Below, in pieces: positions 4,452 to 15,066 of a stretch of DNA of 64,000 nucleotides. Under the pieces are notes generated by a model, which searched no databases, was not told the origin of the DNA, and saw only the letters and a list, made by a program, of their open reading frames with translations. Position 1 is the stretch's first letter, and every line of letters starts with the position of its first letter. This DNA is from a virus (lineage: Duplodnaviria > Caudoviricetes): IMG/VR virus record IMGVR_UViG_3300044961_000667; one strand, given 5' to 3'. A program made the position numbers and the translations under genes.

Positions 4452-4979
4452 TCAGCGCCCACGACGGGACTCGAACCCGCTTCGACGACGATGGGTTCTT
4501 TCAGCATGGCAGTTGGCACAAACAACCTCGCACTTCGCCAACTCCATTCTCACATCTTCCTCTGAACGGGCGTGGTTGACCATCCTCGACACGTCGTCTT
4601 GCTTCGTTCCCCTGACGTGATCAAACTGCATCACCCACGGCCCATACTGATGGCCACAGTCCGTACACGGCGTCGTGCTCTTGATCTCGTTGGCGATCTT
4701 GCGAAGCGTTTCACGCTTGATCGACTTGTACGCCCTGTTCTTGTCGACGTACTTCTGGTGATTGGAGCGGTAGTGCTTTCGCGAACCCTTCTGCATGCAC
4801 ACCCGACATCGCGAATGCCGCAGCGTCGGCTTCCTCTTCCAGTTGAAGTCGTCCTCTGACTTGAACCGTTCGCATCCGGAGCACCACTTCTGAACGCCCC
4901 CGGCGGGAATCGAACCCGCAACCCGTTCGCCTGTAGTCGGCGACAGCTCTGCCAGTTGAGCTACGGAAGCATCTTCCAC
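4452..4979 (-). CDS. HNH endonuclease whose reading frame runs through a tRNA-like sequence
   Basis: CSGC/CRVC, PCTDCG…FDHVRG…KCEVVCANCHAERT; the only plausible start (GTG 4979 after GGAG) precedes the tRNA at 4895-4970. Confidence 0.8.
   Translation of the reverse strand: MEDASVAQLAELSPTTGERVAGSIPAGGVQKWCSGCERFKSEDDFNWKRKPTLRHSRCRVCMQKGSRKHYRSNHQKYVDKNRAYKSIKRETLRKIANEIKSTTPCTDCGHQYGPWVMQFDHVRGTKQDDVSRMVNHARSEEDVRMELAKCEVVCANCHAERTHRRRSGFESRRGR
4456..4480 (-). pseudogene. 3' half (T arm + acceptor strand) of a split tRNA
   Basis: GCGGG TTCGAGT CCCGT CGTGGGC G; pairs 6/7 with acceptor strand at 5026-5032. Confidence 0.65.
4895..4970 (-). tRNA. tRNA-like gene with central CTA in a non-canonical anticodon loop
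   Basis: GCTTCCG/CGGGGGC acceptor, GCTC/GAGC D stem, TCGCC-GACTACA-GGCGA, GCGGG-TTCGATT-CCCGC; lacks U33 and purine 37. Confidence 0.6.
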
Positions 4980-4986
4980 ATCATCT

Positions 4987-5032
4987 CCGTCCACCTGTAG
5001 TCGGCGGTTGCTCGCCTATGAGCTACGAGGGC
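4987..5032 (-). pseudogene. 5' half of the split tRNA (same GACTACA loop)
   Basis: GCCCTCG TA GCTC ATAGGC GAGC AA CCGCC GACTACA GGTGG, no T arm follows. Confidence 0.65.
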
Positions 5033-5074
5033 CTGTTCCAACCTGAGGAGATCGTAACTCCTGCAGGAGTTTCG

Positions 5075-5305
5075 TCAAGTGACTGACTGCGCCGGCTCCT
5101 TGCAGTCGATGCAGTAGCCGCACGAGCCGCACCGGTACTTCACCCAAACGCCCTGCACCTTCGACACCCCCGCCGAGCGTCCGTCCTCCTGGCGCGTGAT
5201 GCCAGGCTTCTTGCACTGCGGGCAGATGCCTTGCTTCAGCTTCTCGTCGATCTGCTGACTCCATTCCTGGATGGCAGCGACAACGTCCTGAGGCGGCTCT
5301 TTCAC
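5075..5305 (-). CDS. Small zinc-finger protein
   Basis: CPQC…CGSCGYCIDC; AGGAG RBS. Confidence 0.6.
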   Translation of the reverse strand: MKEPPQDVVAAIQEWSQQIDEKLKQGICPQCKKPGITRQEDGRSAGVSKVQGVWVKYRCGSCGYCIDCKEPAQSVT

Positions 5306-5320
5306 TTCTCCTCCGTACCA

Positions 5321-5700
5321 TGGAGCTGCGGGGAATCGAACCCCGGTCCGAAAGCCTTCAGTCCTTCGACTCTACGTGCGTAGCCGCTGTCACCGCGGCC
5401 GAGTCCTGCTGCCCGCTGGTCTTTCCCCGCATTCGCCGAGCGGACTGGGCGGGGGCAACTCCTGGGTGGGTTTCGCCTCGCCAGCTACGCAGGAGCGCCT
5501 CGCTGGTTCGACGGAGAGCTAAGACTTTCGGTCCGCTCTCAAGCCCTGATCAGGGCAACCGCTCACGCGGCTGCGAGCATCGGGGCCGCCTCGACGTTGT
5601 CGTTGGCGGTTGTGGTTTCTCACTGGGATTTACGAGCACAGCGAGCTGCTCGGCACGCATCTCAGGTCGTCTTTGCCCCCGTCGAATCCAGTTCAGCCCC
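5321..5700 (-). ncRNA. ssrA: tmRNA, tag peptide ANDNVEAAPMLAAA
   Basis: 5' GGGGCTGAACTGGATTCGAC, 3' GGACCGGGGTTCGATTCCCCGCAGCTCCA; tag frame 5563-5607. Confidence 0.93.
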
Positions 5701-6080
5701 GTTCACTGCTTCCTTCAAGCAACGGCGATAGGCGCCCGTGCCGAACATCCGGTCGGTGCGCCCAACGCAGGGAGTTGTGGTCCCCCGCATCGCCGTCCTC
5801 ATCATCTCGCGCGTCGGTGTCGCCTGCACTTTTCGCACTGGCCCGTGCTGTCGAACACGCACAGCTCCTGATTCACACCGCATCCCACGTACTGCGCGAC
5901 CGAGTCGACGCGGAGCTGGGCTTCGTGGCCGCTCTCACGCGAGTCCGCTGCTCTCTGCGACTGCTCGTTCTGCGTCATGGGGGTGCGCCTTCTGTTCTTG
6001 GTCGAACTGACTGTCAAGATCATCAATGACACCAGTGGACAGTGTTCGTCAAGGGGAACCGGACAGCAGCGACAGTTTCT

Positions 6081-6146
6081 CGACCCGTCCAGGAGTCGAA
6101 CCCAGCACCACGCCCTTAGAAGGGGCCGGCGGATCCATCACGGGCC
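6081..6146 (-). tRNA. tRNA-Arg(TCT), truncated D arm
   Basis: GGCCCGT/ACGGGTC acceptor, CTTCTAA loop, T arm; only 66 nt. Confidence 0.55.
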
Positions 6147-6159
6147 TCAACAACAACAG

Positions 6160-6244
6160 CGGAGCGCCCGAGAGTCGAACTCGGCTGACCCGTGAAGGTC
6201 GTCGCGTTAGCAGTGCGATGCCGTCCCACGCTGGCTCACGCTCC
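6160..6244 (-). tRNA. tRNA-Ser(GCT)
   Basis: Cloverleaf, CTGCTAA loop, long variable arm. Confidence 0.85.
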
Positions 6245-6247
6245 ATG

Positions 6248-6335
6248 CGGAAAAGGCGAGAGTCGAACTCGCAGACCGCCCGAAGACGATCGTCCGCTTT
6301 CCAAGCGGGTGGGCTCACCAGTGCCCAGCTTCTCC
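6248..6335 (-). tRNA. tRNA-Ser(GGA)
   Basis: TTGGAAA loop, long variable arm. Confidence 0.85.
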
Positions 6336-6338
6336 ATG

Positions 6339-6427
6339 CGGAGCGGGTCCGAGTCGAACGGACAGCCCGCCTTTCGACGAGCAAGCGCTTTCGAGACGCT
6401 CTGACTTGCCTGTGTGCAAACCGCTCC
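6339..6427 (-). tRNA. tRNA-Ser(CGA)
   Basis: CTCGAAA loop, long variable arm. Confidence 0.85.
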
Positions 6428-6523
6428 AGAAACACCCTCAGATGACCGCCTGAGGGGCGCGGGGGCCTGTTGGCCGAGATGCCCCTAGCTGTCGCCAGTT
6501 CGTGAGCGTCTCGGGACGGCTTG

Positions 6524-6610
6524 CGGAAGACGGAGGACTCGAACCCCACACCCACTCGGGGTGCCGACCGCTTTCAAGGCGGGCCAGCGTCCATCACTGG
6601 TTCATCTTCC
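6524..6610 (-). tRNA. tRNA-Ser(TGA)
   Basis: CTTGAAA loop, long variable arm. Confidence 0.85.
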
Positions 6611-6611
6611 A

Positions 6612-6941
6612 TCACTGCGATCGCGGCTGATCGGCGTTCCAGACGGAGCGGCCCATCGCTCCCTCATCGGCCTCAGCGTTCTTCAACATCGAGTAGTAGT
6701 CCGGTCGCTCCTTCAGGTGCGCCCAGGCGATCTTCCCGATGTCGAGCAGGTCGTCAACCACGTCGGTCTCCGGGTCGACGTCATGCTCCGACTCAACCCC
6801 GAGACCGGCCGCGAACTCTCCGAGGTCGACCTGGCTCCAGTCGATCCCCAGCTGGTCGCCAACCCACTTCGCCAGCTCAGGGCTCCATGCCGGCGCCTCG
6901 CCGACCTCTTCCTTCAGCTGCCTGACGAGCTTCCTGAGCAT
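6612..6941 (-). CDS. DUF5661-like protein
   Basis: GLGVESEH…DD…KIAWAHLKERPDYYSML motif. Confidence 0.7.
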   Translation of the reverse strand: MLRKLVRQLKEEVGEAPAWSPELAKWVGDQLGIDWSQVDLGEFAAGLGVESEHDVDPETDVVDDLLDIGKIAWAHLKERPDYYSMLKNAEADEGAMGRSVWNADQPRSQ

Positions 6942-6981
6942 GCGGTGGCCTCCGGGCGCACAGTACACCCAGAGGCCACCC

Positions 6982-7524
6982 TCAGTCTTCCAGCTCGGTG
7001 TTCCAGTACGCCACCGAGGCGAGCCACTGCTTCCACGGCTCGGGCATGCCCTTCTTCCAGGTGAAGGTGAGCCGCACCGACTCGGGCAACGACTTCGGCT
7101 TCACCGGCACCTGCAGGAGCTTCATGCCTGCCTGCGCTGGCGTCCGACCGCCCTTCTTCTGGTTGCAGGGCGTGCACGACACCACGATGTTCTCCCACGT
7201 CGTGTGGCCGCCCTGCGTGCGCGGGACGACGTGGTCGTACGTGAAGTCGTGCCTGGGCACCTTCGCCGAGCAGTACTGGCACTTGCCCTTGTCTCGCGTG
7301 AAGACGTTCTCGCGACTGAACTTGATCGCCTTCTTCTTGCCGCGGATCGCCCGGAGGAACCGGATCACCGACGGCACCTTGAACTCCAACGTCATCGAGC
7401 GGACGGTCTTGTCCTCGTACTCCTCGACGACTTCCACCTTCTCCTCCCAGAGGAGGGTGATCGCCCGTTGCCAGCTCACGCGGGCAACCGGGGTGTAGCC
7501 AACATCGAGCACCAGCGTTTCCAC
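6982..7524 (-). CDS. HNH endonuclease (McrA-like bacterial family)
   Basis: LVLDVGYTP…SWQRAITLL…PSVIR…FSRENVFTRDKGKCQYC…TYDHVVPRTQGG…WENIVVSCTPCNQKKG. Confidence 0.9.
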   Translation of the reverse strand: METLVLDVGYTPVARVSWQRAITLLWEEKVEVVEEYEDKTVRSMTLEFKVPSVIRFLRAIRGKKKAIKFSRENVFTRDKGKCQYCSAKVPRHDFTYDHVVPRTQGGHTTWENIVVSCTPCNQKKGGRTPAQAGMKLLQVPVKPKSLPESVRLTFTWKKGMPEPWKQWLASVAYWNTELED

Positions 7525-7562
7525 GTTGCCCGTCCTTTCTGCGGCCTTCGCCGCGGTGAGTG

Positions 7563-7647
7563 TAGTCCCGGCCGGACTCGAACCGGCACGGCCTTTGTGG
7601 CCACTGGGGTTTGAGCCCAGCGCGTCTACCGACTCCGCCACGGGACC
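7563..7647 (-). tRNA. tRNA-Leu(CAA)
   Basis: CTGGG-CTCAAAC-CCCAG, long variable arm. Confidence 0.88.
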
Positions 7648-7652
7648 ATCTG

Positions 7653-7741
7653 TGCTCGGGGCGAGACTCGAACTCGCATGAGGCTTTCGCCCCACCGGCT
7701 TCTGAGGCCGGCGTGTCTACCGAAGGTTCCACCACCCGAGC
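7653..7741 (-). tRNA. tRNA-Leu(CAG)
   Basis: CCGGC-CTCAGAA-GCCGG. Confidence 0.88.
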
Positions 7742-7752
7742 ATGCACTTCAG

Positions 7753-7839
7753 TGGTCCGGGCGAGAGTCGAACTCGCATGATCTTTCGATCGGCAGGCTC
7801 TCAACCTGCTGTGTCTACCGGAGGTTCCACCACCGGACC
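7753..7839 (-). tRNA. tRNA-Leu(GAG)
   Basis: GCAGG-TTGAGAG-CCTGC. Confidence 0.88.
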
Positions 7840-7843
7840 AAAG

Positions 7844-7916
7844 TACCCGCTCTCGGAATCGAACCGAGCCCTCCGCCTTGTGAAAACGGCGCTCTCACCA
7901 GTTGAGCTACGCGGGC
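7844..7916 (-). tRNA. tRNA-Val(CAC)
   Basis: CCGTT-TTCACAA-GGCGG. Confidence 0.82.
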
Positions 7917-7920
7917 ATGT

Positions 7921-7990
7921 CGTGAGCCTGGGAGTCGAACCCAGCTGGGCGGATTATGAGACCGCTGCCTTCCCTCGATGGCTTGCTCAC
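7921..7990 (-). tRNA. tRNA(CAT), Met or Ile2
   Basis: GCGGT-CTCATAA-TCCGC. Confidence 0.75.
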
Positions 7991-7994
7991 GGAG

Positions 7995-8067
7995 TAGCAG
8001 GGGCTGGGATCGAACCAGCGTTCTCCAGGTTATGAGCCTGGCGAGATGACCTCTTCTCCACCCTGCA
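7995..8067 (-). tRNA. tRNA-Met(CAT), initiator-like (1:72 mismatch)
   Basis: TGCAGGG/CCCTGCT, CCAGG-CTCATAA-CCTGG. Confidence 0.8.
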
Positions 8068-8068
8068 G

Positions 8069-8142
8069 TACTCCCGGAGGGACTCGAACCCCCAGCCTCT
8101 TCGTTCGTAGCGAAGCGATCTGATCCGTTGATCTACGGGAGC
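8069..8142 (-). tRNA. tRNA-Arg(ACG)
   Basis: CTTCG-CTACGAA-CGAAG. Confidence 0.88.
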
Positions 8143-8154
8143 ATCAAACAACAG

Positions 8155-8228
8155 CGGTCTCGGCGGGACTCGAACCCGCGGCCTTTCGCTTCGGAGGCGA
8201 ACGCTCTCATCCACTGAGCTACGAGACC
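8155..8228 (-). tRNA. tRNA-Arg(CCG)
   Basis: TTCGC-CTCCGAA-GCGAA. Confidence 0.9.
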
Positions 8229-8230
8229 AG

Positions 8231-8303
8231 CGTTCCCGGAGGGACTCGAACCCCCGACTTCTCCGTTAGGACCGGAGCACTCTTCCAACTGAGCTACGGG
8301 AAC
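8231..8303 (-). tRNA. tRNA-Arg(CCT)
   Basis: CTCCG-GTCCTAA-CGGAG. Confidence 0.85.
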
Positions 8304-8309
8304 ATCCTG

Positions 8310-8380
<71 letters not shown>

Positions 8381-8779
8381 TCAACCAACCACGTACTTCT
8401 CAGCCAACTTCACACCGGACTTCTGACCGTTCTTGGCAGGCTCGACCCGAAGCTGCCCGCCAACGGCCCCAACCTCCTCGACCGGGACCAGATACACCGC
8501 ATCCAACTCTGGGCAGTGGACGCCGAAGAACTCGACCTCACCGCGGTACGACTTTCTCCCAGTCCCTCGGTGAGCCGAGTTGCTGCTGGTGTCGAAGACA
8601 ACCGCTCCATTCTTGAGCCGCCCAGTCTTGCACTGCACTCGCTGGAACCCGGCATCAGTGTCGATCACCAGGTCGTAGCGCTGGTTCTCTCCAATCGGGA
8701 GCAGCACCGTCCTCCCGGTCTTGAGCAACGCCGCCATCACCGCACCCTCTGTTCTCGTCCCCTGCGCCTTGGTGTTCAT
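8381..8779 (-). CDS. PD-(D/E)XK endonuclease (I-Ssp6803I / PDDEXK_5-like)
   Basis: G..TE…PIGENQRYDLVID…FQRVQCKTGR…YRGEVEFFGVHCPELDAVYLVP. Confidence 0.85.
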   Translation of the reverse strand: MNTKAQGTRTEGAVMAALLKTGRTVLLPIGENQRYDLVIDTDAGFQRVQCKTGRLKNGAVVFDTSSNSAHRGTGRKSYRGEVEFFGVHCPELDAVYLVPVEEVGAVGGQLRVEPAKNGQKSGVKLAEKYVVG

Positions 8780-8799
8780 GCTCCACATCTACCACACCG

Positions 8800-8841
8800 C
8801 TCGGACACCAGCCGAGTGCTCTGCCTTCGAGCTGCGGGGGC
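8800..8841 (-). pseudogene. 5' remnant of tRNA-Thr(GGT)
   Basis: GCCCCCG CA GCTC GAAGGCA GAGC A CTCGG CTGGTGT CCGAG, no T arm. Confidence 0.7.
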
Positions 8842-8845
8842 GCTG

Positions 8846-8918
8846 TGGATCTGGCCGGACTCGAACCGGCAACCTTCTGCGTGCAAAGCAGCCGCTCTCC
8901 CATTGGAGCTACAGACCC
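8846..8918 (-). tRNA. tRNA-Ala(TGC)
   Basis: TTTGCAC loop, G3-U70. Confidence 0.88.
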
Positions 8919-8923
8919 TTCAG

Positions 8924-8996
8924 TGGAACCGGCGGGACTTGAACCCGCCACCTCTCGCATGCGAAGCGAGCGCTCTCCCAGATGAGCTACGGCCCC
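8924..8996 (-). tRNA. tRNA-Ala(CGC)
   Basis: CTCGC-TTCGCAT-GCGAG. Confidence 0.88.
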
Positions 8997-9001
8997 AGGT
9001 G

Positions 9002-9072
9002 TGCGCGAGCAGGGAGTCGAACCCTGTCGTCTCCCGCGTCGGGGGAGTGCTCTACCGGTGAGCTACACGCGC
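9002..9072 (-). tRNA. tRNA-Val(GAC) with C33
   Basis: CTCCC-CCGACGC-GGGAG. Confidence 0.75.
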
Positions 9073-9161
9073 ATGGGCAGGCGGTGCTTTCGCCGAGCTG
9101 CCAGCAGTCACCACGTTCGTGACCCCGGCCCTGCTCGGTAGACTGCCACCTCTCCTGCTTG

Positions 9162-9234
9162 TGGACCCGGCGGGGATCGAACCCGCTACCTCTCGCATGC
9201 CATGCGAGCGCTCTCCCAAGTGAGCTACAGGCCC
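9162..9234 (-). tRNA. tRNA-Ala(GGC)
   Basis: CTCGC-ATGGCAT-GCGAG. Confidence 0.88.
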
Positions 9235-9326
9235 TAAGCGAGGCAGTTCGTAACGCTGCCTGCCCGGCTTTCCACCGGCGCGGGTTGATCAGACCCACGA
9301 GACTTGCCCGGAGCGACCGGGCCATG

Positions 9327-9399
9327 TGCCGTCCCTCGGAATCGAACCGAGATCCTCCGCTCTTCAGGCGGGTGCATGGACCACCACTGCCAAGACGGC
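9327..9399 (-). tRNA. tRNA-Phe(GAA)
   Basis: CCCGC-CTGAAGA-GCGGA. Confidence 0.82.
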
Positions 9400-9408
9400 G
9401 TACTTCAG

Positions 9409-9480
9409 CGGACCCGAACGGAATCGAACCGTCCTCGCCGGCGTGACAGGCCGGTCGCCTCACCAGATGCGTACGGATCC
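9409..9480 (-). tRNA. tRNA-Asp(GTC)
   Basis: CCGGC-CTGTCAC-GCCGG. Confidence 0.85.
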
Positions 9481-9485
9481 AACAG

Positions 9486-9568
9486 GGCGACTGGAGAGAA
9501 TCGAACTCTCACTGAGCTTTCGCTCGCGGGGTCACAACCCGCTGGGAACCCATTTCCCATCAGCCGCC
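9486..9568 (-). tRNA. tRNA-His(GTG) with long variable arm
   Basis: G-1:C73, GCGGG-TTGTGAC-CCCGC, GAGC-GAAA-GCTC variable hairpin. Confidence 0.8.
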
Positions 9569-9576
9569 AGAAGAAA

Positions 9577-9696
9577 TCTGCTCCACCCGAGTGAGGAAGG
9601 CATGAAACGGGTTTGAACCGTCTGGTCGATTTAGCAGATCGACTGATCACCAAGATCAGTAGTGCGTGTGAGCCATCCTCGGCCGGGTGGTGCAGA
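9577..9696 (-). ncRNA. tRNA-mimic-like structured RNA with extended closing stem
   Basis: D-like, anticodon-like and T-like hairpins closed by about 21 bp of interrupted terminal helix. Confidence 0.5.
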
Positions 9697-9697
9697 G

Positions 9698-9769
9698 TCC
9701 GCCGCAGTGGAATCGAACCACTTGCCTCTCGCTTATCAGGCGAGTGCTCTTCCAGTGAGCTACCGGCGG
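9698..9769 (-). tRNA. tRNA-Ile(GAT)
   Basis: CTCGC-CTGATAA-GCGAG. Confidence 0.82.
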
Positions 9770-9778
9770 GCACGTCAG

Positions 9779-9852
9779 TCAGGGTGGCTGGGATCGAACC
9801 AGCGACCTCCTGCATCCGAAGCAGGCGCGCTACCAGGCTGCGCTACACCCTG
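9779..9852 (-). tRNA. tRNA-Pro(CGG)
   Basis: CCTGC-TTCGGAT-GCAGG. Confidence 0.9.
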
Positions 9853-9862
9853 TTGAGTCAAG

Positions 9863-9899
9863 TCAGGTCGGCTGGGATCGAACCAGCGATCTCCTGCAT
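9863..9899 (-). pseudogene. 3' half of split tRNA-Pro
   Basis: AT GCAGG AGATC GCTGG TTCGATC CCAGC CGACCTG A. Confidence 0.8.
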
Positions 9900-10327
9900 C
9901 ACCAGACGTGGTCACTGGCCAGCAGGATGTTCTTCTTGGCCCCATTCGCGGGGGCCTCCAATCTCACATGCAGGATCGACTTCCCCTGGAACTCCTCAGG
10001 CAGGAAGGCCGTCACCACGTCCATCTCAGGCAGATACACCAGAAGCAGGTCAACCTCCCCGACCTCATACTTCTTGAACGACTTGTTGCTCGGTCCCACC
10101 CACGTCCTCAGAGCCACAGTCGCCACGCCGGACGAATGAGACGACTTGCCGCCTCCATACTTCGCTTGGGCCCGGATCAACCTAACACCATCATCCAGAA
10201 CCAGATCGTACCTGGCATCGGTTGTGGGCCGACTGACGACAAACCCCTTCTCAATCGCCCTCTGCTGCGCCTTCAGCGATGCCACTTCACCCTTCTGCCT
10301 GGTGTCCACTTCTCTTGCGTACCACAC
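9899..10327 (-). CDS. PD-(D/E)XK endonuclease (PDDEXK_5-like)
   Basis: KGEVA…VSRPTTDARYDLVLDDG…RAQAK…YEVGEVDLLLVY; paralogous to 8381-8779. Confidence 0.82.
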   Translation of the reverse strand: MWYAREVDTRQKGEVASLKAQQRAIEKGFVVSRPTTDARYDLVLDDGVRLIRAQAKYGGGKSSHSSGVATVALRTWVGPSNKSFKKYEVGEVDLLLVYLPEMDVVTAFLPEEFQGKSILHVRLEAPANGAKKNILLASDHVW

Positions 10328-10340
10328 AGGAGAACATCTG

Positions 10341-10412
10341 TCGAAGAGACTGGACTCGAACCAGCATCCTCACGGCCCCCAGCCGTGCGCTCCACCATTG
10401 AGCTACTCCTCG
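10341..10412 (-). tRNA. tRNA-Pro(GGG)
   Basis: CGAGGAG/CTCTTCG, CACGG-CTGGGGG-CCGTG. Confidence 0.82.
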
Positions 10413-10417
10413 TCACG

Positions 10418-10452
10418 CCCGAGCAGGCGCGGTACCACTCCGCTACGACCTG
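10418..10452 (-). pseudogene. 5' half of split tRNA-Pro
   Basis: CAGGTCG TA GCGG AGTGGTA CCGC G CCTGC TCGGG; pairs perfectly with 9863-9899. Confidence 0.8.
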
Positions 10453-10456
10453 AAAG

Positions 10457-10528
10457 TCTGGAAGGCGGGGATCGAACCCGCGACCTCTCGCGTCCAAGGC
10501 GAGCGCCCTACCGCTGGACTACTTCCAG
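10457..10528 (-). tRNA. tRNA-Pro(TGG)
   Basis: CTCGC-CTTGGAC-GCGAG. Confidence 0.85.
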
Positions 10529-10532
10529 TTGT

Positions 10533-10544
10533 GCAATCGATTGC
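10533..10544. promoter_or_regulatory. GCAATCGATTGC palindrome copy 3
   Basis: Exact 12-mer, 4 nt upstream of tRNA-Pro(TGG). Confidence 0.7.
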
Positions 10545-10552
10545 GTTCAAAA

Positions 10553-10712
10553 CTGTGCAGTGCGGACTGGCGGTTTGCACCCGCTGCACCGCATTGTCGG
10601 CCTGGCCTCAATAGGCCGCACGGTCCCACGCCGTCGAACGCCAGGACCTGCACCAACCACCGCCATGTTCGACCTGCCAAGCGGTGCCCGTTCATGCCGG
10701 GATGCTGCACAG
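10553..10712 (-). ncRNA. Candidate 160-nt structured RNA
   Basis: CTGTGCAG…CTGCACAG terminal helix followed by TTTT; several internal hairpins. Confidence 0.45.
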
Positions 10713-10784
10713 TACCCCGTACGAGAATCGAACTCGTTTCGCTCGCTTGAAGGGCGAGGGGCCTAACCAATGGCCGAACGGGGC
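10713..10784 (-). tRNA. tRNA-Glu(TTC) with C33
   Basis: CTCGC-CCTTCAA-GCGAG. Confidence 0.8.
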
Positions 10785-11119
10785 TTCTCTGCTCGATCAT
10801 GCGTCCTCTGCCGATGACAGTTGGCGCAGACCACTTCACATTTCTCGATCTCGGCTACGACCTTCTCAGGTCCGACACCGTGCCTCTTGAACTGCCCCAG
10901 GCTGAACTCCTTCCGACCCCTGACGTGATCAAAGTCCATCACCCATGGCGGATAGGCGACACCGCAGTCCGCGCACGGCCTGGACTTGGCTTTGTCGATG
11001 ATCGCCTTGATCGTCTCTTTGTAGGCCGCTGCCGCTCTGATGTACGAGATCTTGTTCTTCTCGTAGTGCCTGCGGCTGTACTCGGCCTGCTTCGACTTCG
11101 ACGGCTCTCTGAGCGGCAT
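10763..11119 (-). CDS. HNH endonuclease (paralog of 4452-4979)
   Basis: PCADCG…WVMDFDHVRG…KCEVVCANCHRQRT; stop lies inside tRNA-Glu. Confidence 0.85.
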   Translation of the reverse strand: MPLREPSKSKQAEYSRRHYEKNKISYIRAAAAYKETIKAIIDKAKSRPCADCGVAYPPWVMDFDHVRGRKEFSLGQFKRHGVGPEKVVAEIEKCEVVCANCHRQRTHDRAEKPRSAIG

Positions 11120-11129
11120 TCTTCGTCAT

Positions 11130-11198
11130 ACCACTTGACGAACCTTTCGTCACTCCACCTTGAAAGGGTGTCGGCCTCACCTGAAGCACCAACGGGGC
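11130..11198 (-). pseudogene. 5' remnant of tRNA-Glu(TTC)
   Basis: GCCCCGT…ACACC CTTTCAA GGTGG then a decayed T arm and no 3' acceptor strand. Confidence 0.7.
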
Positions 11199-11203
11199 TG
11201 AAG

Positions 11204-11274
11204 TACCGCGTACGGGTGTCGAACCCGTCTCACTGGGCTGAGAACCCAGGGACCTCCCGGAAGTCGAACGCGGC
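11204..11274 (-). tRNA. tRNA-Glu(CTC)
   Basis: CTGGG-TTCTCAG-CCCAG. Confidence 0.82.
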
Positions 11275-11280
11275 TTGAAG

Positions 11281-11353
11281 AGGCGGAGGCGGGAGTCGAA
11301 CCCGCTCGATGTCGGTTTTGCAGACCGATGCCTTCCCAGTTGGCTACTCCGCC
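11281..11353 (-). tRNA. tRNA-Cys(GCA)
   Basis: TCGGT-CTGCAAA-ACCGA, U73. Confidence 0.88.
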
Positions 11354-11375
11354 AGGGAAAGACGAGACTGTGCAC

Positions 11376-11732
11376 ATGAAGCGCGTGCTGTGCCTTGATG
11401 ACGACGACATGGTGGCCCGGCTCATCGCCGAGGTGGTCGAGTTCTGCGGACACGAGCCCGTTCGAGAGAGCGACCCGCTGAAGGCTTCCTCGGACCACCT
11501 CCACGACCGGAAGATCGCTGCGGTGCTCACCGACTACATGATGCCTCGCCTCGATGGCGTCGACGTTCTGGTGGTCTGGCAGGAGTCTCGACCCGAGGTG
11601 CGCCGAGTGCTGATCACCGCGGCCCCGAACGAGCCGGCGGTGAAAGAGGCCCTCCGCACCGGCGTCGCTCAGATGGTGATCGCTAAGCCTCCGACGATCG
11701 CCGACATCAAGATGGCCCTGGCCTGGCTCTGA
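11376..11732 (+). CDS. Single-domain response regulator (CheY-like receiver)
   Basis: RVLCLDDD…VLTDYMMPRLDG…VLITAA…IAKP: acidic pair, phospho-Asp, Thr, Lys all present. Confidence 0.9.
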   Translation: MKRVLCLDDDDMVARLIAEVVEFCGHEPVRESDPLKASSDHLHDRKIAAVLTDYMMPRLDGVDVLVVWQESRPEVRRVLITAAPNEPAVKEALRTGVAQMVIAKPPTIADIKMALAWL

Positions 11733-11733
11733 G

Positions 11734-12297
11734 CTACCGCTTCTTCCTCGCCAGTCGCTCCTCCAGCTGCTGAACCGACATCTGGATGGAGTCGTTGATC
11801 GACCGCATCATGTCCTGCCGGAGCTTGTACTCCAGCTCCTGCAGCTTCTTGTCGGAGGCGTCCTTCGACTCCTTCTCGCGCTGGCGGTAGTACTCACCCT
11901 GTTTCTCGATGCGCTGGTCCACCGCCTGCCGGATCTCCGAGACCGTTCCCTTCATGGCCTCGATGGCCGACAGCACCTGCTTCATCTCGGTCTGAACGTT
12001 GCCGACCGACTTGTCGATACCGGCCAGGGCGTCGCTCTGCTCGTCGAACTTGTCGTCGTGCTCGTCGAGCCGCTCTTCGGTCTTCTGCTTGTCCTTGTCC
12101 TCGCGGTCGACCGTCCGCGAGCCCAGCCACTTGACGAAGCCAACGACGGCTCCGATCAACTGGGTGACGACTGCTGCTCCGACCAGCAAGTACAGCCCGG
12201 TCAGCCCGTCACCTGCTGGCGCTGGCGGTGGGGTTGCTGCTGCGGCTCCTGCCGCCGCCGCCGCCGCCGGGCCCGCCGCCAAGATCAACAGGTTCAA
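11734..12297 (-). CDS. Membrane protein with coiled-coil tail (holin-like?)
   Basis: One hydrophobic helix LYLLVGAAVVTQLIGAVVGFVKWL followed by a long charged coiled coil. Confidence 0.6.
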   Translation of the reverse strand: MNLLILAAGPAAAAAAGAAAATPPPAPAGDGLTGLYLLVGAAVVTQLIGAVVGFVKWLGSRTVDREDKDKQKTEERLDEHDDKFDEQSDALAGIDKSVGNVQTEMKQVLSAIEAMKGTVSEIRQAVDQRIEKQGEYYRQREKESKDASDKKLQELEYKLRQDMMRSINDSIQMSVQQLEERLARKKR

Positions 12298-12300
12298 GAA

Positions 12301-12657
12301 CTACTCCTTGCTCGACAGATCGTCGTCGTCGTCGGGCTCTTCAGAGGGCACCGCCGACACCGGAGTCGCTGGCGGGAGGTTCACCTGCAGCTTGGCCGCA
12401 ATGGCGTCCACCACCTTCGACGTGTGCCGGCTTTCCATCTGCATCGACATCATCAGCTTCTCGCCTCGGAGCGTGCGCTCGTCGACATGCTTCACGGCGG
12501 TCTTCAGTGCCGCCAGGTCCTCGCCGAAGCCGGCCATTTTGGACCTCATCTCGTGCATGTCCTCTTCGAGCTTTGCCACTCGCGAGGCCAGGCTGATGGC
12601 CGTCGGCTTCCGCTTTCTTGGGGCCGTACGGAGGCCCCTCCCTCTGGTGTCACGCAA
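12301..12657 (-). CDS. Coiled-coil hypothetical protein
   Basis: Heptad pattern, basic N-terminus, acidic C-terminus. Confidence 0.6.
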   Translation of the reverse strand: MRDTRGRGLRTAPRKRKPTAISLASRVAKLEEDMHEMRSKMAGFGEDLAALKTAVKHVDERTLRGEKLMMSMQMESRHTSKVVDAIAAKLQVNLPPATPVSAVPSEEPDDDDDLSSKE

Positions 12658-12766
12658 AGTCGCTCTCCGAAGAAGCGGTCCACGGTCGTGGTTCTCTCAC
12701 GGCCTGCTGTTGGTTGACTGCTCCATCTTTCGCCCTCTTCTGGGCATCCGTCAACTGTCACTGATG

Positions 12767-12841
12767 CGTACCCTCTCGGAATCGAACCGAGCACCGTCGG
12801 CTTAACAGGCCGCTGCTATCAACCAGACCAGCTCAGGGCAC
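12767..12841 (-). tRNA. tRNA-Asn(GTT)
   Basis: CTGTTAA loop. Confidence 0.75.
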
Positions 12842-12847
12842 ATCGTA

Positions 12848-12918
12848 CTGGGGAGGAAGGGATCGAACCTTCTCCGTCGGCTTCAGAGACCGCTGCGCTA
12901 CCCTTGCGCCACTCCCCA
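12848..12918 (-). tRNA. tRNA-Gln(CTG)
   Basis: CTCTGAA loop, TGGGGAG acceptor. Confidence 0.85.
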
Positions 12919-12930
12919 ATGTCTTTCGCT

Positions 12931-12997
12931 CAGGGGCCCTGGGAATCGAACCCAGCTCGTCGGCTTCAAAGGCCGACTCACTCCCTGAGTACCCCTC
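12931..12997 (-). tRNA. tRNA-Gln(TTG), irregular
   Basis: TCGGC-CTTTGAA-GCCGA; short D region. Confidence 0.6.
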
Positions 12998-13001
12998 CAT
13001 G

Positions 13002-13073
13002 AGCGGGTGGCGAGGATCGAACTCGCGCATCCTGGGTTGGAAGCCCAGAGCCTTTCCGCTTGGCTACACCCGC
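13002..13073 (-). tRNA. tRNA-Gly(TCC)
   Basis: CTGGG-CTTCCAA-CCCAG. Confidence 0.88.
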
Positions 13074-13076
13074 ATG

Positions 13077-13147
13077 TACCGCCGCTGGGGATCGAACCCA
13101 GTCCCTCCGCTTAAAAGGCGGTTGCTCTACCCTTGAGCTACGACGGC
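13077..13147 (-). tRNA. tRNA-Lys(TTT)
   Basis: CTTTTAA loop. Confidence 0.85.
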
Positions 13148-13204
13148 GCGTGGACCTGCGCCGTCGCGTTTCATCTTCGTCTTCATCGTCGTCTCCTTGT
13201 CGAG

Positions 13205-13292
13205 TGGTGGGAAGGCTCGGAGTCGAGCCGAGCTGGGACGCAATGCCACCCGCTTTACAGGCGGGCCACGAGCCCTACGTGTCTACCTTCCC
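13205..13292 (-). tRNA. tRNA-Tyr(GTA), encoded CCA
   Basis: CCCGC-CTGTAAA-GCGGG, long variable arm. Confidence 0.82.
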
Positions 13293-13295
13293 ATG

Positions 13296-13366
13296 AGCGG
13301 CATCCGGGAATCGAACCCGGTTCAGTGGCCTGGCAGACCACGGCCCAACCAATAGACCAATGCCGC
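13296..13366 (-). tRNA. tRNA-Gly(GCC)
   Basis: GTGGT-CTGCCAG-GCCAC. Confidence 0.85.
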
Positions 13367-13448
13367 ATACGGCTTTGTCGCTGACGGCCGCGCAGATCCT
13401 CGTGCGGAATGCACGAAGGACTGAACGTCTGCCGGCGACAGAAGCCAG

Positions 13449-13519
13449 TGGGCCCTGAGGGGATCGAACCCTCTCCTGACGCTTAAGAGGCGCCTGCTCT
13501 ACCCTTGAGCTAAGGACCC
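13449..13519 (-). tRNA. tRNA-Lys(CTT)
   Basis: GGCGC-CTCTTAA-GCGTC. Confidence 0.87.
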
Positions 13520-13569
13520 AGATTCGGCCAGCCCGACTAGACGTCAGACAGGTGGCCGAACTGTCGCTG

Positions 13570-13590
13570 CTATCCAGTTTTCAGAGAACA
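13570..13590 (-). promoter_or_regulatory. boxA-like antitermination site
   Basis: TGTTCTCTGAAAACTGGATAG resembles the rRNA-operon boxA TGTTCTTTGAAAACT. Confidence 0.55.
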
Positions 13591-13599
13591 GAACTGCGA

Positions 13600-13673
13600 A
13601 GCACCAGGTCGGGCTCGAACCGACGACCTGCGGTTTACGAAACCGCTGCTGCTACCTGCTGAGCTACTGGTGC
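13600..13673 (-). tRNA. tRNA-Thr(CGT)
   Basis: GCGGT-TTCGTAA-ACCGC. Confidence 0.87.
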
Positions 13674-13677
13674 ACTG

Positions 13678-13751
13678 CACGGCGAGCAGGAGTCGAACCT
13701 GCAGCGTCGGGTTTTGGAGGCCCGTTCCCTTCCCGTTGGGGACTTCGCCGT
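13678..13751 (-). tRNA. tRNA-Trp(CCA)
   Basis: CTCCAAA loop, G73. Confidence 0.8.
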
Positions 13752-13811
13752 ATACCGTTGTTCCTTTCCTTTTGACGAAACATCCTCTCGAAGACTGACC
13801 TGCGGTGGTGC

Positions 13812-13853
13812 AGAAAAGCGAAAGGCCGGGACCCTTTTGGGGTGCCCGGCCTC
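13812..13853 (-). terminator. Intrinsic terminator-like hairpin ahead of the tRNA array
   Basis: AGGCCGGG…CCCGGCCT followed by TTCGCTTTT. Confidence 0.6.
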
Positions 13854-13879
13854 CGTGAGCGATCCAATGTGCTACTGGA

Positions 13880-14059
13880 TCAGGTTCTCATGGAGCCGGG
13901 CCGTCGGTGGTCGCTGGTACCCAGATTCTGCTCGGGCTGATAGGCGACCACGCTTTCGACGGACCAAAGGCACGAACGCAAAAACGCCGGTCGAGCGGCC
14001 ATGGCCGCCCCGGCGATTCGCTTCGTCAGCGCTTTGGTTGAGGTCGACATCGAAAGCAC
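13880..14059 (-). CDS. Small leader ORF (59 aa)
   Basis: AAGGAG RBS then GTG; lies between a promoter and a terminator. Confidence 0.45.
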   Translation of the reverse strand: MLSMSTSTKALTKRIAGAAMAARPAFLRSCLWSVESVVAYQPEQNLGTSDHRRPGSMRT

Positions 14060-14078
14060 GTGCTCCTTGATGTCCAGC

Positions 14079-14108
14079 AGAGTACCCACCTGACGAATTC
14101 GCCGTCAA
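14079..14108 (-). promoter_or_regulatory. Sigma70-like promoter
   Basis: TTGACG-N18-TACTCT. Confidence 0.55.
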
Positions 14109-14130
14109 GCACCTGACGACGATTCTTCGA

Positions 14131-15066
14131 TCAGTACCAGCCCGCGGGGTTCAACGTCGGGTTGTTCTCGAACGGGTACTGCTCACCGCCACCCTCGTCG
14201 TCATCCTGCCAACCAGGAGCGCCCTGTTCCATCTCCGGGTCGGACTCGATGCTTCGACGAACTTCCTTCTCCATGAAGTCGGCGATCACCGCCATCATCG
14301 CCTCGTCGTCTTCAGCTCCCTGCATCGCGCTCACGAGCGAGCCCTCGTCCGAGTCGGCCTCGACCAGCATCTGGCCGTGGAGCTGGAACGCCTCGACGAA
14401 GTCGATCTTCTTCAGGAAGCTCTGCCACGCATCCCTCGCGTAGTCGGCGACCTTCTCCTTGAACTTGCCGGTGCCGATGTCTCGACCGCGGTAGAAACCC
14501 TTGAGAAAGGTCCTCGCGATCGACTTCGCGATTCCTCCGGCCACGTCGGAGACCTTCTTCTTCTCCTCGGGAGACGGCTTCTTCCCGGCCGCCGCCCCCT
14601 TGAGCGCCTTGGTCGCTTCCTTGGCTGCTTCGGGATTCTTGGCGACAGCCTTGGCAGCGGCCTTCTTCGCGCGGCCCTTGCCCTTCGCGACCTTCGCCTG
14701 ACCAGGGGCTTTCTTCGGGGCCGGCGCCTCGGCATCACCCTTCGGCTTGTCGACCTTGGTGGCCGGCTGCCCCTTCGGCTTCTTCGCGGAACCACCCTTC
14801 TCGGGCACCTTCTCCCAGTCGCCCTCCTTCGTCTTGACGAAGGTGCCCGCCTTGCGCTTCCGCTTCTCACCCGGCTTGGCGACGTTGGTGCCCTGGCCCT
14901 TGCCGGCGGCAGTCTTCGCCACCGACGGCTTGCCCACCGCGGTTCCACCCTTCTTCTGCAGCTGCGAGATCGGGATGAGCACCGGAGACGTCTTCACGTC
15001 GCGCGGGTACGGGCCCTTCTCAACGAGGGAACGCATCTGCTCCACGAGTGAAGAGAGGCTGCTCAC
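14131..15066 (-). CDS. Lys/Ala/Gly-rich histone-H1-like protein with acidic tail
   Basis: AGGAG + GTG; PAKK/AAK repeats; acidic C-terminus after LVE-A. Confidence 0.7.
   Translation of the reverse strand: MSSLSSLVEQMRSLVEKGPYPRDVKTSPVLIPISQLQKKGGTAVGKPSVAKTAAGKGQGTNVAKPGEKRKRKAGTFVKTKEGDWEKVPEKGGSAKKPKGQPATKVDKPKGDAEAPAPKKAPGQAKVAKGKGRAKKAAAKAVAKNPEAAKEATKALKGAAAGKKPSPEEKKKVSDVAGGIAKSIARTFLKGFYRGRDIGTGKFKEKVADYARDAWQSFLKKIDFVEAFQLHGQMLVEADSDEGSLVSAMQGAEDDEAMMAVIADFMEKEVRRSIESDPEMEQGAPGWQDDDEGGGEQYPFENNPTLNPAGWY

Follow-up and report, generated by a model that had tools for sequence, protein, structure and literature searches.

As far as is known, homing endonuclease (HE) genes persist in essential genes only within self-splicing introns or inteins, their other refuge being the space between genes. 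In phage Aeh1, nrdA is reportedly split by mobE. 'Fractured genes' that carry split inteins and are split by free-standing endonuclease genes have been described (Dassa et al. 2009, PMC2677866), and the endonuclease-gene invasion model of collaborative homing brings together a free-standing HE and an ORF-less intron (reviewed in PMC3984707). In tRNA clusters, SegB of phages T4 and T6, a free-standing GIY-YIG endonuclease, cuts the tRNA genes of phages lacking SegB and is inherited preferentially together with the neighbouring tRNA genes (PMC2330249), and the association of nucleases with tRNA genes is widespread (PMC13096335). A further relative is I-Ssp6803I (PDB 2OST; PF11645), which is encoded in the group I intron of the Synechocystis tRNA-fMet gene.

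Here we describe a cassette that interrupts a tRNA-Pro(GGG) gene in the tRNA array of a phage, in a window of 64,000 nucleotides, the whole stretch of DNA that was analysed. The best reading of this cassette, to which we give a probability of roughly 0.8, is that of an intron-less homing element equipped with a replacement tRNA. Pfam, sequence comparison and fold prediction all place its nuclease in the family of I-Ssp6803I, both genes lie in a tRNA anticodon loop, and the presumed target is a pseudo-palindromic anticodon arm. However, I-Ssp6803I is carried on a cyanobacterial chromosome inside a self-splicing intron, whose removal from the RNA restores the tRNA, whereas the cassette resides in a phage tRNA array, has no ribozyme, and would restore function at the DNA level through a second complete tRNA gene. 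Like SegB, it embeds a free-standing nuclease gene in such an array, but SegB has a GIY-YIG fold and targets the T-psi-C region while the cassette enzyme is of the PD-(D/E)XK type. SegB also sits between genes and replaces the flanking ones by co-conversion, and there is no description of it as an insert in a split tRNA gene, complete with a self-contained replacement and an exact empty site that is itself a tRNA gene. As in the fractured genes, a free-standing HE gene has been inserted in a gene with no intron; there, trans-splicing inteins or the assembly of subunits keep both pieces working, whereas those flanking the cassette appear to be dead, a spare gene being supplied instead. Collaborative homing likewise involves an HE pre-adapted to a conserved site, a partner that neutralises the damage, and illegitimate recombination that builds the composite, but there the partner is a ribozyme intron and here it would be a duplicate tRNA gene.

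All features of the cassette and the split gene (Table 1) are co-oriented with an array of 39 tRNA genes and a tmRNA gene. The 5' half of the resident gene comprises the 5' strand of the acceptor stem, the D arm, the 5' strand of the anticodon stem and the loop nucleotides up to the anticodon; the 3' half supplies the last loop nucleotides, the 3' strand of the anticodon stem, the variable loop, the T arm, the 3' acceptor strand and A73. When joined, the halves make 72 nt that ARAGORN calls as tRNA-Pro(GGG), with fully paired acceptor (7/7), D (4/4), anticodon (5/5) and T (5/5) stems and the loop TCGGGAT, its sole oddity being C33. The cloverleaf recognised in the initial annotation is thereby upheld, and the uninterrupted gene is present in four other public runs. 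Shuffled sequences have an expected count of 0.00 for a 23-nt probe that spans the anticodon arm of the joined gene, so the split tRNA is not a product of chance. Over 31 nt, the 3' half is 96.8% identical to the neighbouring tRNA-Pro(CGG).

Table 1. Features of the interrupted tRNA-Pro(GGG) locus, in window coordinates
Feature	Position	Length	Strand	Basis or remark
tRNA-Pro(TGG), upstream neighbour	10456..10528		minus	ARAGORN
Resident tRNA-Pro(GGG), 5' half	10418..10452	35 nt	minus	Sequence; ARAGORN on joined halves
Cassette, insertion/deletion polymorphism	9900..10417	518 nt	minus	9899 joined to 10418 in contigs of runs X5, X7, X8 and X10
Cassette tRNA-Pro(GGG), putative replacement	10340..10412		minus	ARAGORN; Rfam tRNA, 61.2 bits; sequence
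Spacer between cassette tRNA and nuclease gene	10310..10339	30 nt	minus	Small hairpin possible over a weak Shine-Dalgarno-like stretch
PD-(D/E)XK homing-endonuclease gene, GTG start	9899..10309	136 aa	minus	PF11645, I-Ssp6803I family
Resident tRNA-Pro(GGG), 3' half	9863..9899	37 nt	minus	Sequence; ARAGORN; orphan T arm at 9887
tRNA-Pro(CGG), downstream neighbour, paralogue of the split gene	9778..9852		minus	ARAGORN

Empty-site alleles, which the initial annotation had put forward as a check on its reading, were found in four public runs (X5, X7, X8 and X10), one of them holding both alleles. Contigs of these runs skip exactly 518 nt, the 5' half being contiguous with the last base, 9899, of the 3' half. 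In X7, a 123,753-bp DNA contig of a near-identical phage crosses the empty site with the halves exactly joined and shows only five other differences in about 1300 nt. Both filled and empty alleles occur in X5, a bioreactor run, and the unitigs there end at a distance of exactly 30 nt on either side of the junctions, which is what a k=31 bubble should give. X8 and X10 are RNA libraries, and the joined halves found there probably reflect the empty allele, being found likewise in DNA contigs. Read depth is even, and both alleles are present as single copies. Since the empty site is present in DNA contigs and both alleles are present in one run, the cassette is a DNA insertion polymorphism and not an intron. 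SNPs, which in unitigs can be phased over no more than 30 nt, are about 7-fold denser in the cassette (8 in 518 nt) than in its flanks (3 in 1461 nt; p 0.0016), which is at most suggestive of horizontal movement. An exact-pattern search of IMG/VR for the rejoined junction gave 0 matches, and a BLAST search of the region against GenBank phages gave generic tRNA matches only (71-80%).

The insertion point lies in the anticodon loop, between nucleotides 35 and 36 or 36 and 37, as the junction slides by 1 nt (a G). From its 5' end, the cassette consists of a 5-nt linker, a tRNA-Pro(GGG), the spacer and the PF11645 nuclease gene, which is its only ORF and lies inside neither a self-splicing intron nor an intein. 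ARAGORN, Rfam and Pfam confirm the first impression of an insert that holds only a divergent, intact tRNA-Pro(GGG) and an endonuclease. The accompanying remark that a ribozyme would have no room also stood: only about 35 nt remain once the tRNA and the ORF are subtracted, and an Rfam scan of the insert with permissive filters (E<=1) returned tRNA as the sole family, with neither Intron_gpI nor any other ribozyme. The cassette tRNA has the canonical U33 and G37, in contrast to the C33 and A37 of the resident gene, along with C1-G72 and A73, and its anticodon arm (CACGG/CCGTG) differs from the resident one (CCTGC/GCAGG). In the window, this inner tRNA is unlike the halves, which resemble their native neighbour.

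A transposon or IS-type insertion was considered and rejected, given that the cassette ends (9900 and 10417) carry no terminal inverted or direct repeats beyond the 1-nt ambiguity and that the sole ORF is the nuclease. A hairpin sequestering the Shine-Dalgarno region was also set aside as a feature: it recurs at the matching place in three further loci (L001, L002 and L003, described below), making four in all, yet shuffled sequence folds equally well (z +0.14).

The nuclease matches PF11645 with an E-value of 2.7e-22 and 79.7 bits (cut-off 26.1) over profile positions 2-135 of 138. Its start is likely the GTG at 10309 and not that at 10327, judging by alignment with the MDTRQK... of its homologues. 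The TGA stop occupies 9901-9899, and the 3' half of the resident gene contributes either the final base or the final two, in agreement with the overlap given in the initial annotation. At the sequence level, the protein matches PDB 2OST with an E-value of 1e-4 and is about 23% identical to I-Ssp6803I. An AF2 model (pLDDT 84.5, pTM 0.80) retrieved the four chains of 2OST as the top four Foldseek matches in the PDB (E 2e-8 to 2e-7, TM 0.70-0.78; best fold match TM 0.76-0.78), and the matches that follow have E-values above 2e-3. The catalytic D...QxK motif (D35, Q48 and K50) is invariant in a six-sequence alignment and aligns with YDLV...VQVK of 2OST. Profile, sequence, predicted fold and motif together assign the protein to the I-Ssp6803I-type PD-(D/E)XK family. 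Seven of the eight SNPs between two natural copies of the cassette are synonymous, and the pattern of substitution indicates that the gene is under purifying selection.

A search for the same architecture in other tRNA arrays, which the initial annotation had also suggested, yielded three loci in which a 5' piece, a tRNA, a homologous nuclease and a 3' piece follow one another: L001 and L002, two diverged phage tRNA arrays in which a tRNA-Pro gene is split, and L006, a metagenomic tRNA-Arg gene with an inner tRNA-Arg. In L001 and L002 the inner tRNA occupies the position of the cassette tRNA. Their nucleases are 65-67% identical to that of the window and the L006 nuclease is 47% identical; in all three the ORF ends ...TGG T, leaving the rest of the stop codon to be supplied by the 3' piece. 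The order Pro(TGG), split Pro, Pro(CGG) is conserved in L001. In the DNA available, the window and L001 have the nuclease and the tRNAs in common but no other proteins, so the question of vertical or horizontal descent rests on tRNA covariation and the read data. In IMG/VR, neither a protein pattern of the single nuclease nor one from an alignment of four sequences retrieved any relatives. Fifteen viral contigs with an intact tRNA-Pro(GGG) and an anticodon-arm pattern of the L001/L002 type were discarded as empty sites of this lineage, their arrays being non-syntenic.

Between the split genes of the window and L001 there are eight fully compensatory stem changes, three of them between the two halves, and on this account each gene would have been a working tRNA until shortly before it was split. 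Elsewhere the remnants are decayed or truncated: they are truncated or mismatched in L002 and L006, the 5' piece of L006 stops in the D arm, and L003 has a whole decayed copy downstream. This pattern is what dead target genes of different ages might be expected to leave. In L001 no rejoining of the halves restores the GGG anticodon, and neither loop nor anticodon is conserved in L001 and L002.

These observations bear on two readings in which the halves would still yield a tRNA. One is that they are spliced together from around an intron, which would belong to a degenerate group I or to a new type assisted by tRNA-processing enzymes, and this would suit the anticodon-loop position at which bacterial tRNA group I introns occur, the intron-encoded nature of the relative I-Ssp6803I, and the joined halves in contigs of the two RNA libraries. 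We judge it very improbable: the joined form in DNA runs, including the 123.7-kb contig, means that the RNA-library contigs need no splicing, the leftover of the insert is about 35 nt with no Rfam intron model at E<=1, the remnants of L002 and L006 are damaged and the anticodon of L001 is lost, and a complete isoacceptor inside the insert makes splicing unnecessary. The other reading, a functional split tRNA whose halves are made separately and paired or ligated in trans as in Nanoarchaeum, was considered because of the covariation across the halves, which keeps all stems paired between the window and L001. The same covariation is equally expected of a gene that was intact until recently, and an intact allele exists today; moreover, the loop and anticodon vary among the tRNA-Pro loci, one 5' piece ends in the D arm, and the sequence has no evident complementary leader and trailer or bulge-helix-bulge motif. 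With an intact allele at hand and decayed remnants elsewhere, this reading was dropped as scarcely credible.

It is also conceivable that the locus is a static scar, left by a one-off illegitimate recombination or local duplication, and that filled and empty alleles were exchanged by ordinary strain recombination with the nuclease playing no driving part. Cleavage by the nuclease is deduced from its family, SegB-linked rearrangement and amplification of a tRNA region through microhomology is documented (PMC13096335), the 3' half of L001 is 96% identical to the 3' part of its inner tRNA, as local duplication would produce, and the 5' junctions are heterogeneous, with no clean alignment between the window, L001 and L002. 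This explanation nevertheless seems unlikely, given that homologous nucleases are found in this layout at four loci, in two species of tRNA, and each time with the 3' junction on the last codon of the ORF, that the boundaries of the indel restore a perfect tRNA, and that the nuclease is intact, under purifying selection, and of a family of HEs that target tRNA anticodons. Furthermore, the inner tRNA of the window is unlike the halves, and the halves are like the native neighbour.

The proposal of intron-less homing with a replacement tRNA, made in the initial annotation, draws support from the empty alleles, the lack of a ribozyme, the I-Ssp6803I-family nuclease and the recurrent layout. In outline, a free-standing HE cassette would invade a tRNA gene, and the complete replacement tRNA aboard would make splicing unnecessary. 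The nuclease, like its relative I-Ssp6803I, may recognise a pseudo-palindromic anticodon arm, here that of the uninterrupted resident gene, and upon co-infection would cut that gene in phages without the cassette; recombinational repair from the cassette-bearing genome would then copy the cassette in. Insertion would destroy the target and so render the carrier immune, and the cassette tRNA, with its different anticodon arm, would escape cutting while supplying the tRNA-Pro(GGG) function. As no promoter or terminator consensus was found in the cassette and it is co-directional with the array, it is probably expressed as part of the long transcript of the array. A simple pair of tRNA and nuclease genes, such as that seen in L008, is the probable source of the nested form, which would have originated on one or a few occasions by illegitimate capture into a cut allele and would have spread afterwards by ordinary homing.

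Several observations count against this scheme. Just one sequence in the window comes close to the presumed 23-bp target, the anticodon arm of tRNA-Pro(CGG), with three mismatches, and this gene is intact nonetheless. The inner tRNA of L002 has the same anticodon stem as the remnant (CTTGC/GCAAG), which means that immunity cannot always come from a diverged arm. The heterogeneity of the 5' junctions also weighs against it, as do the 5 of 10 loci of this nuclease clade that have no remnant.

At least four nuclease cassettes are present in the single tRNA array of this phage. The initial annotation had counted three of them (numbered 1, 2 and 4) as company for the homing design; cassettes 2 and 4, however, have a different layout, in which a remnant of the 5' two-thirds is followed by the nuclease and then a complete tRNA, the gene having been broken beyond the anticodon arm. 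The accumulation of cassettes would agree with a nuclease that has been partly domesticated, for phage competition (marker exclusion) or for break-induced amplification or exchange of tRNAs against tRNA-targeting defences, so that the tRNA is selected cargo and not mere compensation, a reading that overlaps with the homing cassette. Escape from Septu through amplification of tRNA-Tyr is driven by SegB, for which enrichment in the vicinity of tRNAs is also described (PMC13096335), and the cassette tRNA is canonical at U33 and G37 where the resident has C33 and A37. Partial domestication is nonetheless quite unlikely, as flat read depths and single-copy alleles give no evidence of amplification and no observation ties the tRNA variant to a defence system.

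A literature search, with most subscription journals outside its reach, found no description of a nested cassette of tRNA and nuclease. The initial annotation had called the locus an undescribed system, and this holds for the nested, replacement-carrying design only, since HEs homing in phage tRNA clusters are known (SegB; PMC2330249, PMC13096335). What is new here is this design with a nuclease of the PD-(D/E)XK type, and with filled as well as empty alleles in nature. On this reading the element breaks a gene and brings a working copy, which would be a third solution to survival in essential genes, one with direct population evidence. Beyond this locus, we lean slightly towards the view that 'replace rather than splice' is a general, unnamed homing strategy, adopted independently by at least four nuclease folds, PD-(D/E)XK in the present case, and actively spreading in phage populations, the last suggested by the coexistence of filled and empty alleles. 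In such a strategy, a nuclease gene fused to a full copy of the gene that it targets would invade that gene, the spare making the invasion harmless. A bolder and less likely idea is that selection acts on the cargo tRNA alleles themselves, for instance because they evade host anticodon nucleases; if so, the cassettes would be vehicles for exchanging anti-defence tRNAs.

A cultured relative, gp106 of Streptomyces phage Forrest, offers a laboratory handle on the enzyme family. The small I-Ssp6803I family is extended to free-standing phage enzymes that probably read tRNA anticodon arms and could supply new long-site nucleases. Such cassettes would account for the tRNA fragments that litter phage tRNA arrays, and the natural pair of filled and empty alleles makes homing without splicing testable.

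The 39 tRNA genes and the tmRNA gene of the window form one co-oriented minus-strand array at about 4.9-13.8 kb, broken up by several small open reading frames that include PF11645 PD-(D/E)XK and HNH nucleases detected with Pfam. The phage is uncultured and GC-rich (63%), no close relatives of the window were found among GenBank phages or in IMG/VR, and the runs that contain it come from hot-spring, microbial-mat, bioreactor and wastewater metagenomes. On the minus strand, tRNA-Pro(TGG) is followed after 3 nt by the 35-nt 5' piece of a split gene and, 5 nt further on, by a complete tRNA-Pro(GGG). A spacer of 30 nt separates this tRNA from an open reading frame of 136 codons, after which come the 37-nt 3' piece, 10 nt and tRNA-Pro(CGG). 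Every detail of this split that had been read from the sequence proved correct: ARAGORN calls the rejoined pieces as a 72-nt tRNA-Pro(GGG) with all stems fully paired, the 518-nt insert (9900-10417, cassette 3) has the contents described, and the nuclease stop (TGA, 9901-9899) takes its final one or two bases from the 3' piece. The split gene looks native, since over 31 nt its 3' piece shares 97% identity with the neighboring tRNA-Pro(CGG). The inner tRNA-Pro(GGG) is unlike the split gene in the acceptor, D and anticodon stems.

Nuclease and tRNA features of the array discussed in the text
Feature	Position	Strand	Description
HNH nuclease	6982-7695		Pfam
Full tRNA-Thr(GGT), cassette 2	8309-8380	minus	Abuts stop of PF11645 gene 8381-8779
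PF11645 PD-(D/E)XK nuclease, cassette 2	8381-8788 as called	minus	Pfam
Remnant of tRNA-Thr(GGT), cassette 2	about 8841-8797	minus	Acceptor strand, D arm and whole anticodon stem-loop kept; just upstream of PF11645 gene
3' piece of split tRNA-Pro	9863-9899 (37 nt)	minus	Begins AT GCAGG; perfect T arm; end CGACCTG-A
PF11645 PD-(D/E)XK nuclease, cassette 3	9899-10327 as called	minus	Pfam
5' piece of split tRNA-Pro	10418-10452 (35 nt)	minus	Acceptor strand CAGGTCG, D arm, anticodon-stem strand CCTGC, loop bases TCGGG
Full tRNA-Glu(TTC), cassette 4	10712-10784	minus	First 22 nt overlapped by last 22 nt of HNH gene
HNH nuclease, cassette 4	10763-11119	minus	Motif
Remnant of tRNA-Glu(TTC), cassette 4	about 11198-11139	minus	Anticodon arm included; upstream of HNH gene

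The initial annotation had also argued that the insert leaves no room for a ribozyme, and this holds: once the tRNA and the open reading frame are subtracted only about 35 nt are left over, and a permissive Rfam scan of 4500-14500 returned tRNAs and the tmRNA, with no intron or ribozyme. No inverted or direct repeats were found at the cassette ends, and no promoter or terminator consensus within it. The nuclease start was adjusted to a GTG at 10309, since homologues begin MDTRQK. Directly 5' of the nuclease genes, a small hairpin covers the Shine-Dalgarno region in the window (10310-10339) and in three loci with homologous nucleases (L001 9972-9996, L002 109-135, L003 8369-8389), but its predicted stability does not exceed that of shuffled sequences (z -1.8 to +0.1).

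Contigs from four public runs, aligned to window positions 9300-11300, establish that an uninterrupted form of the gene exists. In all four, a joint links 9899 to 10418 and omits the 518 nt between them; its exact position is ambiguous by 1 nt. The wastewater DNA run X7 has this joint within a contig of 123,753 bp, contiguous at record 122303 to 122304, with zero depth for the insert and only five other differences from the window over about 1300 nt. The bioreactor run X5 contains both alleles, the joint at a depth of 18.1 and a cassette-bearing 577-nt unitig (9871-10447) at 11.5; the unitig ends exactly 30 nt beyond each junction, which is characteristic of a bubble formed by two alleles in a graph with k=31. 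The joints in X7 and X5 thus reveal a near-identical phage with the gene intact. Cassette 3 is a discrete insertion in an anticodon loop, and its filled and empty alleles coexist in nature and within one sample. The search for empty sites proposed in the initial annotation thus succeeded, and the original observation is confirmed. As DNA itself carries the joined form, the same joint in the RNA libraries X8 and X10 is uninformative about splicing. Per base, cassette 3 differs about seven times as often as its flanks (8/518 versus 3/1461, Fisher p 0.0016), an excess that would agree with a separate history of the cassette and is suggestive only, because the unitigs phase the flanks no further than 30 nt.

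Since the empty-allele sequence equals the rejoined halves, the unusual loop of the uninterrupted tRNA-Pro(GGG), TCGGGAT with C33 and A37, is its native state. In the cassette tRNA these positions are U33 and G37, the canonical bases. Nearly all tRNAs have U33, so the native gene may encode an unusual tRNA or one that works poorly.

The cassette 3 nuclease matches PF11645 (E 2.7e-22) and, by sequence, PDB 2OST, which is I-Ssp6803I (E 1e-4). For its AlphaFold model (pLDDT 84.5), the best four PDB matches are the four chains of 2OST (TM 0.70-0.78, E about 1e-8), and the next matches are five orders of magnitude weaker. D35, Q48 and K50 are invariant among homologues. The eight positions at which the X5 cassette differs from that of the window all fall in the nuclease gene, and seven are synonymous (the other being V83A), indicating purifying selection on a member of this tRNA-anticodon-directed homing family. 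The anticodon arm is a natural pseudo-palindrome, so an I-Ssp6803I relative in an anticodon loop is exactly what is expected of a homing element of this family, except that cassette 3 has no intron. I-Ssp6803I itself acts as a tetramer and recognizes a pseudo-palindromic site of 23 bp (PMC3384342).

A search of 5.8 billion proteins recovered three relatives of the nuclease (67%, 65% and 49% identity). Two loci, L001 (a Logan contig) and L002 (JGI), have tRNA arrays syntenic with that of the window, with orthologous tRNAs 53-95% identical across all three (63-95% between window and L001), and share its layout of Pro(TGG), 5' piece, tRNA-Pro(GGG), nuclease, 3' piece and Pro(CGG). A metagenome scan added L006, where a nuclease of 47% identity and an inner tRNA-Arg(ACG) lie between fragments of another Arg-type tRNA, the 5' fragment comprising acceptor and D arm and the acceptor strands of the two fragments pairing 7/7; the nested layout therefore recurs in two tRNA species. 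In all four nested loci the reading frame closes with TGG T, and loop bases of the 3' piece supply the rest of the stop codon (T|GA for the window and L006, T|AG for L001 and L002). The insertion point thus falls after position 35 or 36 of the anticodon.

Comparison of the split genes of the window and L001 shows eight double stem changes, all fully compensatory and with no broken pair; in three, the paired bases lie in different halves (acceptor pairs 5-68 and 6-67, anticodon-stem pair 28-42). These changes imply that both genes still worked as tRNAs until shortly before splitting, and they argue that diverged alleles were invaded separately and fairly recently. The compensatory pattern would equally be produced by a functional split tRNA, but that reading fails: the intact allele is found in present-day phages, a GGG anticodon is not restored by any rejoining of the L001 halves, L002 has an anticodon-stem mismatch, and the L006 5' piece stops in the D arm.

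In L003, L004 and L005, tRNA-Pro(CGG) and the nuclease are followed by a decayed full-length tRNA-Pro(CGG) copy; that of L003 (5250-5327, downstream of the 49%-identical nuclease; 86% identity over 42 nt) has its loop changed from TTCGGGA to TCCAGGA, and by its sequence represents a third layout. No tRNA remnant was found at L007, L008, L009, L025 (a Candidatus Parabeggiatoa contig) or gp106 of the cultured Streptomyces phage Forrest, where the nuclease sits beside tRNA genes or without any tRNA, nor at a more distant PF11645 gene (30% identity) between tRNA genes of Synechococcus phage Sf-FR1 (L027). The nested cassette could plausibly have descended from a simple tRNA-nuclease pair such as that of L008. 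Forrest gene 106 (L026, MZ820093.1 69567-69962) lies 7 nt upstream of tRNA-Asp in the tRNA array of that phage and shares 44% identity with the PF11645-family nuclease of the window; judged on this likeness, its deposited annotation as 'endonuclease VII' looks wrong.

The window array has only four orphan T arms, the 3' piece of the split tRNA-Pro among them. One (GACGG TTCAAAC CCGTT, at 9622) lies with hairpins in the 129-nt minus-strand gap 9568-9696 between tRNA-His and tRNA-Ile, which drew no tRNA call from ARAGORN or Rfam and may be an odd tRNA-like RNA or a further remnant. Orphan T arms outside called tRNAs also occur at 6105 and 4480 (minus), the latter adjoining a tRNA-like gene with a CUA anticodon, called 'Pyl' (4894-4971). 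At 7753-7839 (minus), between tRNA-Leu(CAG) and tRNA-Val(CAC), Rfam finds a tRNA of class II length (44.4 bits) missed by ARAGORN, which may be a further tRNA-Leu. L001 carries a tRNA-like sequence of roughly 130 nt between tRNA-Pro(TGG) and the 5' half (9700-9835); its acceptor strands are GCGGGAG/CTCCCGT, its T arm is canonical and its middle is oversized, and it drew no ARAGORN call. The X7 contig has about 100 extra nt at 9484, between tRNA-Asp and tRNA-His, a second indel polymorphism within the array.

Cassettes 2 and 4 of the window had been offered as parallel cases, which holds in part. Both do combine a nuclease with a tRNA remnant and a full tRNA, but the nuclease is preceded by the old 5' part and followed by the full gene, and the break lies 3' of the anticodon arm; on sequence they are not nested insertions. 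The X7 contig, which is without cassette 3, carries cassette 4.

These results support reading cassette 3 as an intron-less homing cassette, to which we assign a probability of about 0.8 and for which the cleavage specificity of the enzyme is presumed. During co-infection, the nuclease would cut the intact arm CCTGC-TCGGGAT-GCAGG of cassette-free genomes, repair from a filled genome would copy the cassette in, and insertion would destroy the cutting site; the cargo tRNA, with the arm CACGG-CTGGGGG-CCGTG, would escape cutting and supply tRNA-Pro(GGG). The arm of the neighboring tRNA-Pro(CGG) has only three mismatches to the presumed 23-bp site, and in L002 the inner tRNA and the remnant have the same anticodon stem. 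For the first nested copy we favor illegitimate capture of a tRNA-nuclease unit at a cut site, by analogy with the endonuclease-gene invasion model (PMC3984707) and with SegB-linked microhomology events (PMC13096335).

The initial annotation's suggestion of an undescribed system stands in part. Free-standing endonucleases and intron-less homing are known, as in SegB, which resides in a phage tRNA cluster and cuts tRNA genes (PMC2330249, PMC13096335); an L-array-linked HNH nuclease is a further established tRNA-cluster case (PMC8421152), and genes split by free-standing nuclease genes have been described (PMC2677866). A full-text literature search found neither a cassette nested in a tRNA gene with a complete isoacceptor as its own remedy nor a free-standing phage-borne I-Ssp6803I-family member nested that way. 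To these systems cassette 3 apparently adds, for the nested replacement-tRNA design, natural filled and empty alleles observed directly.
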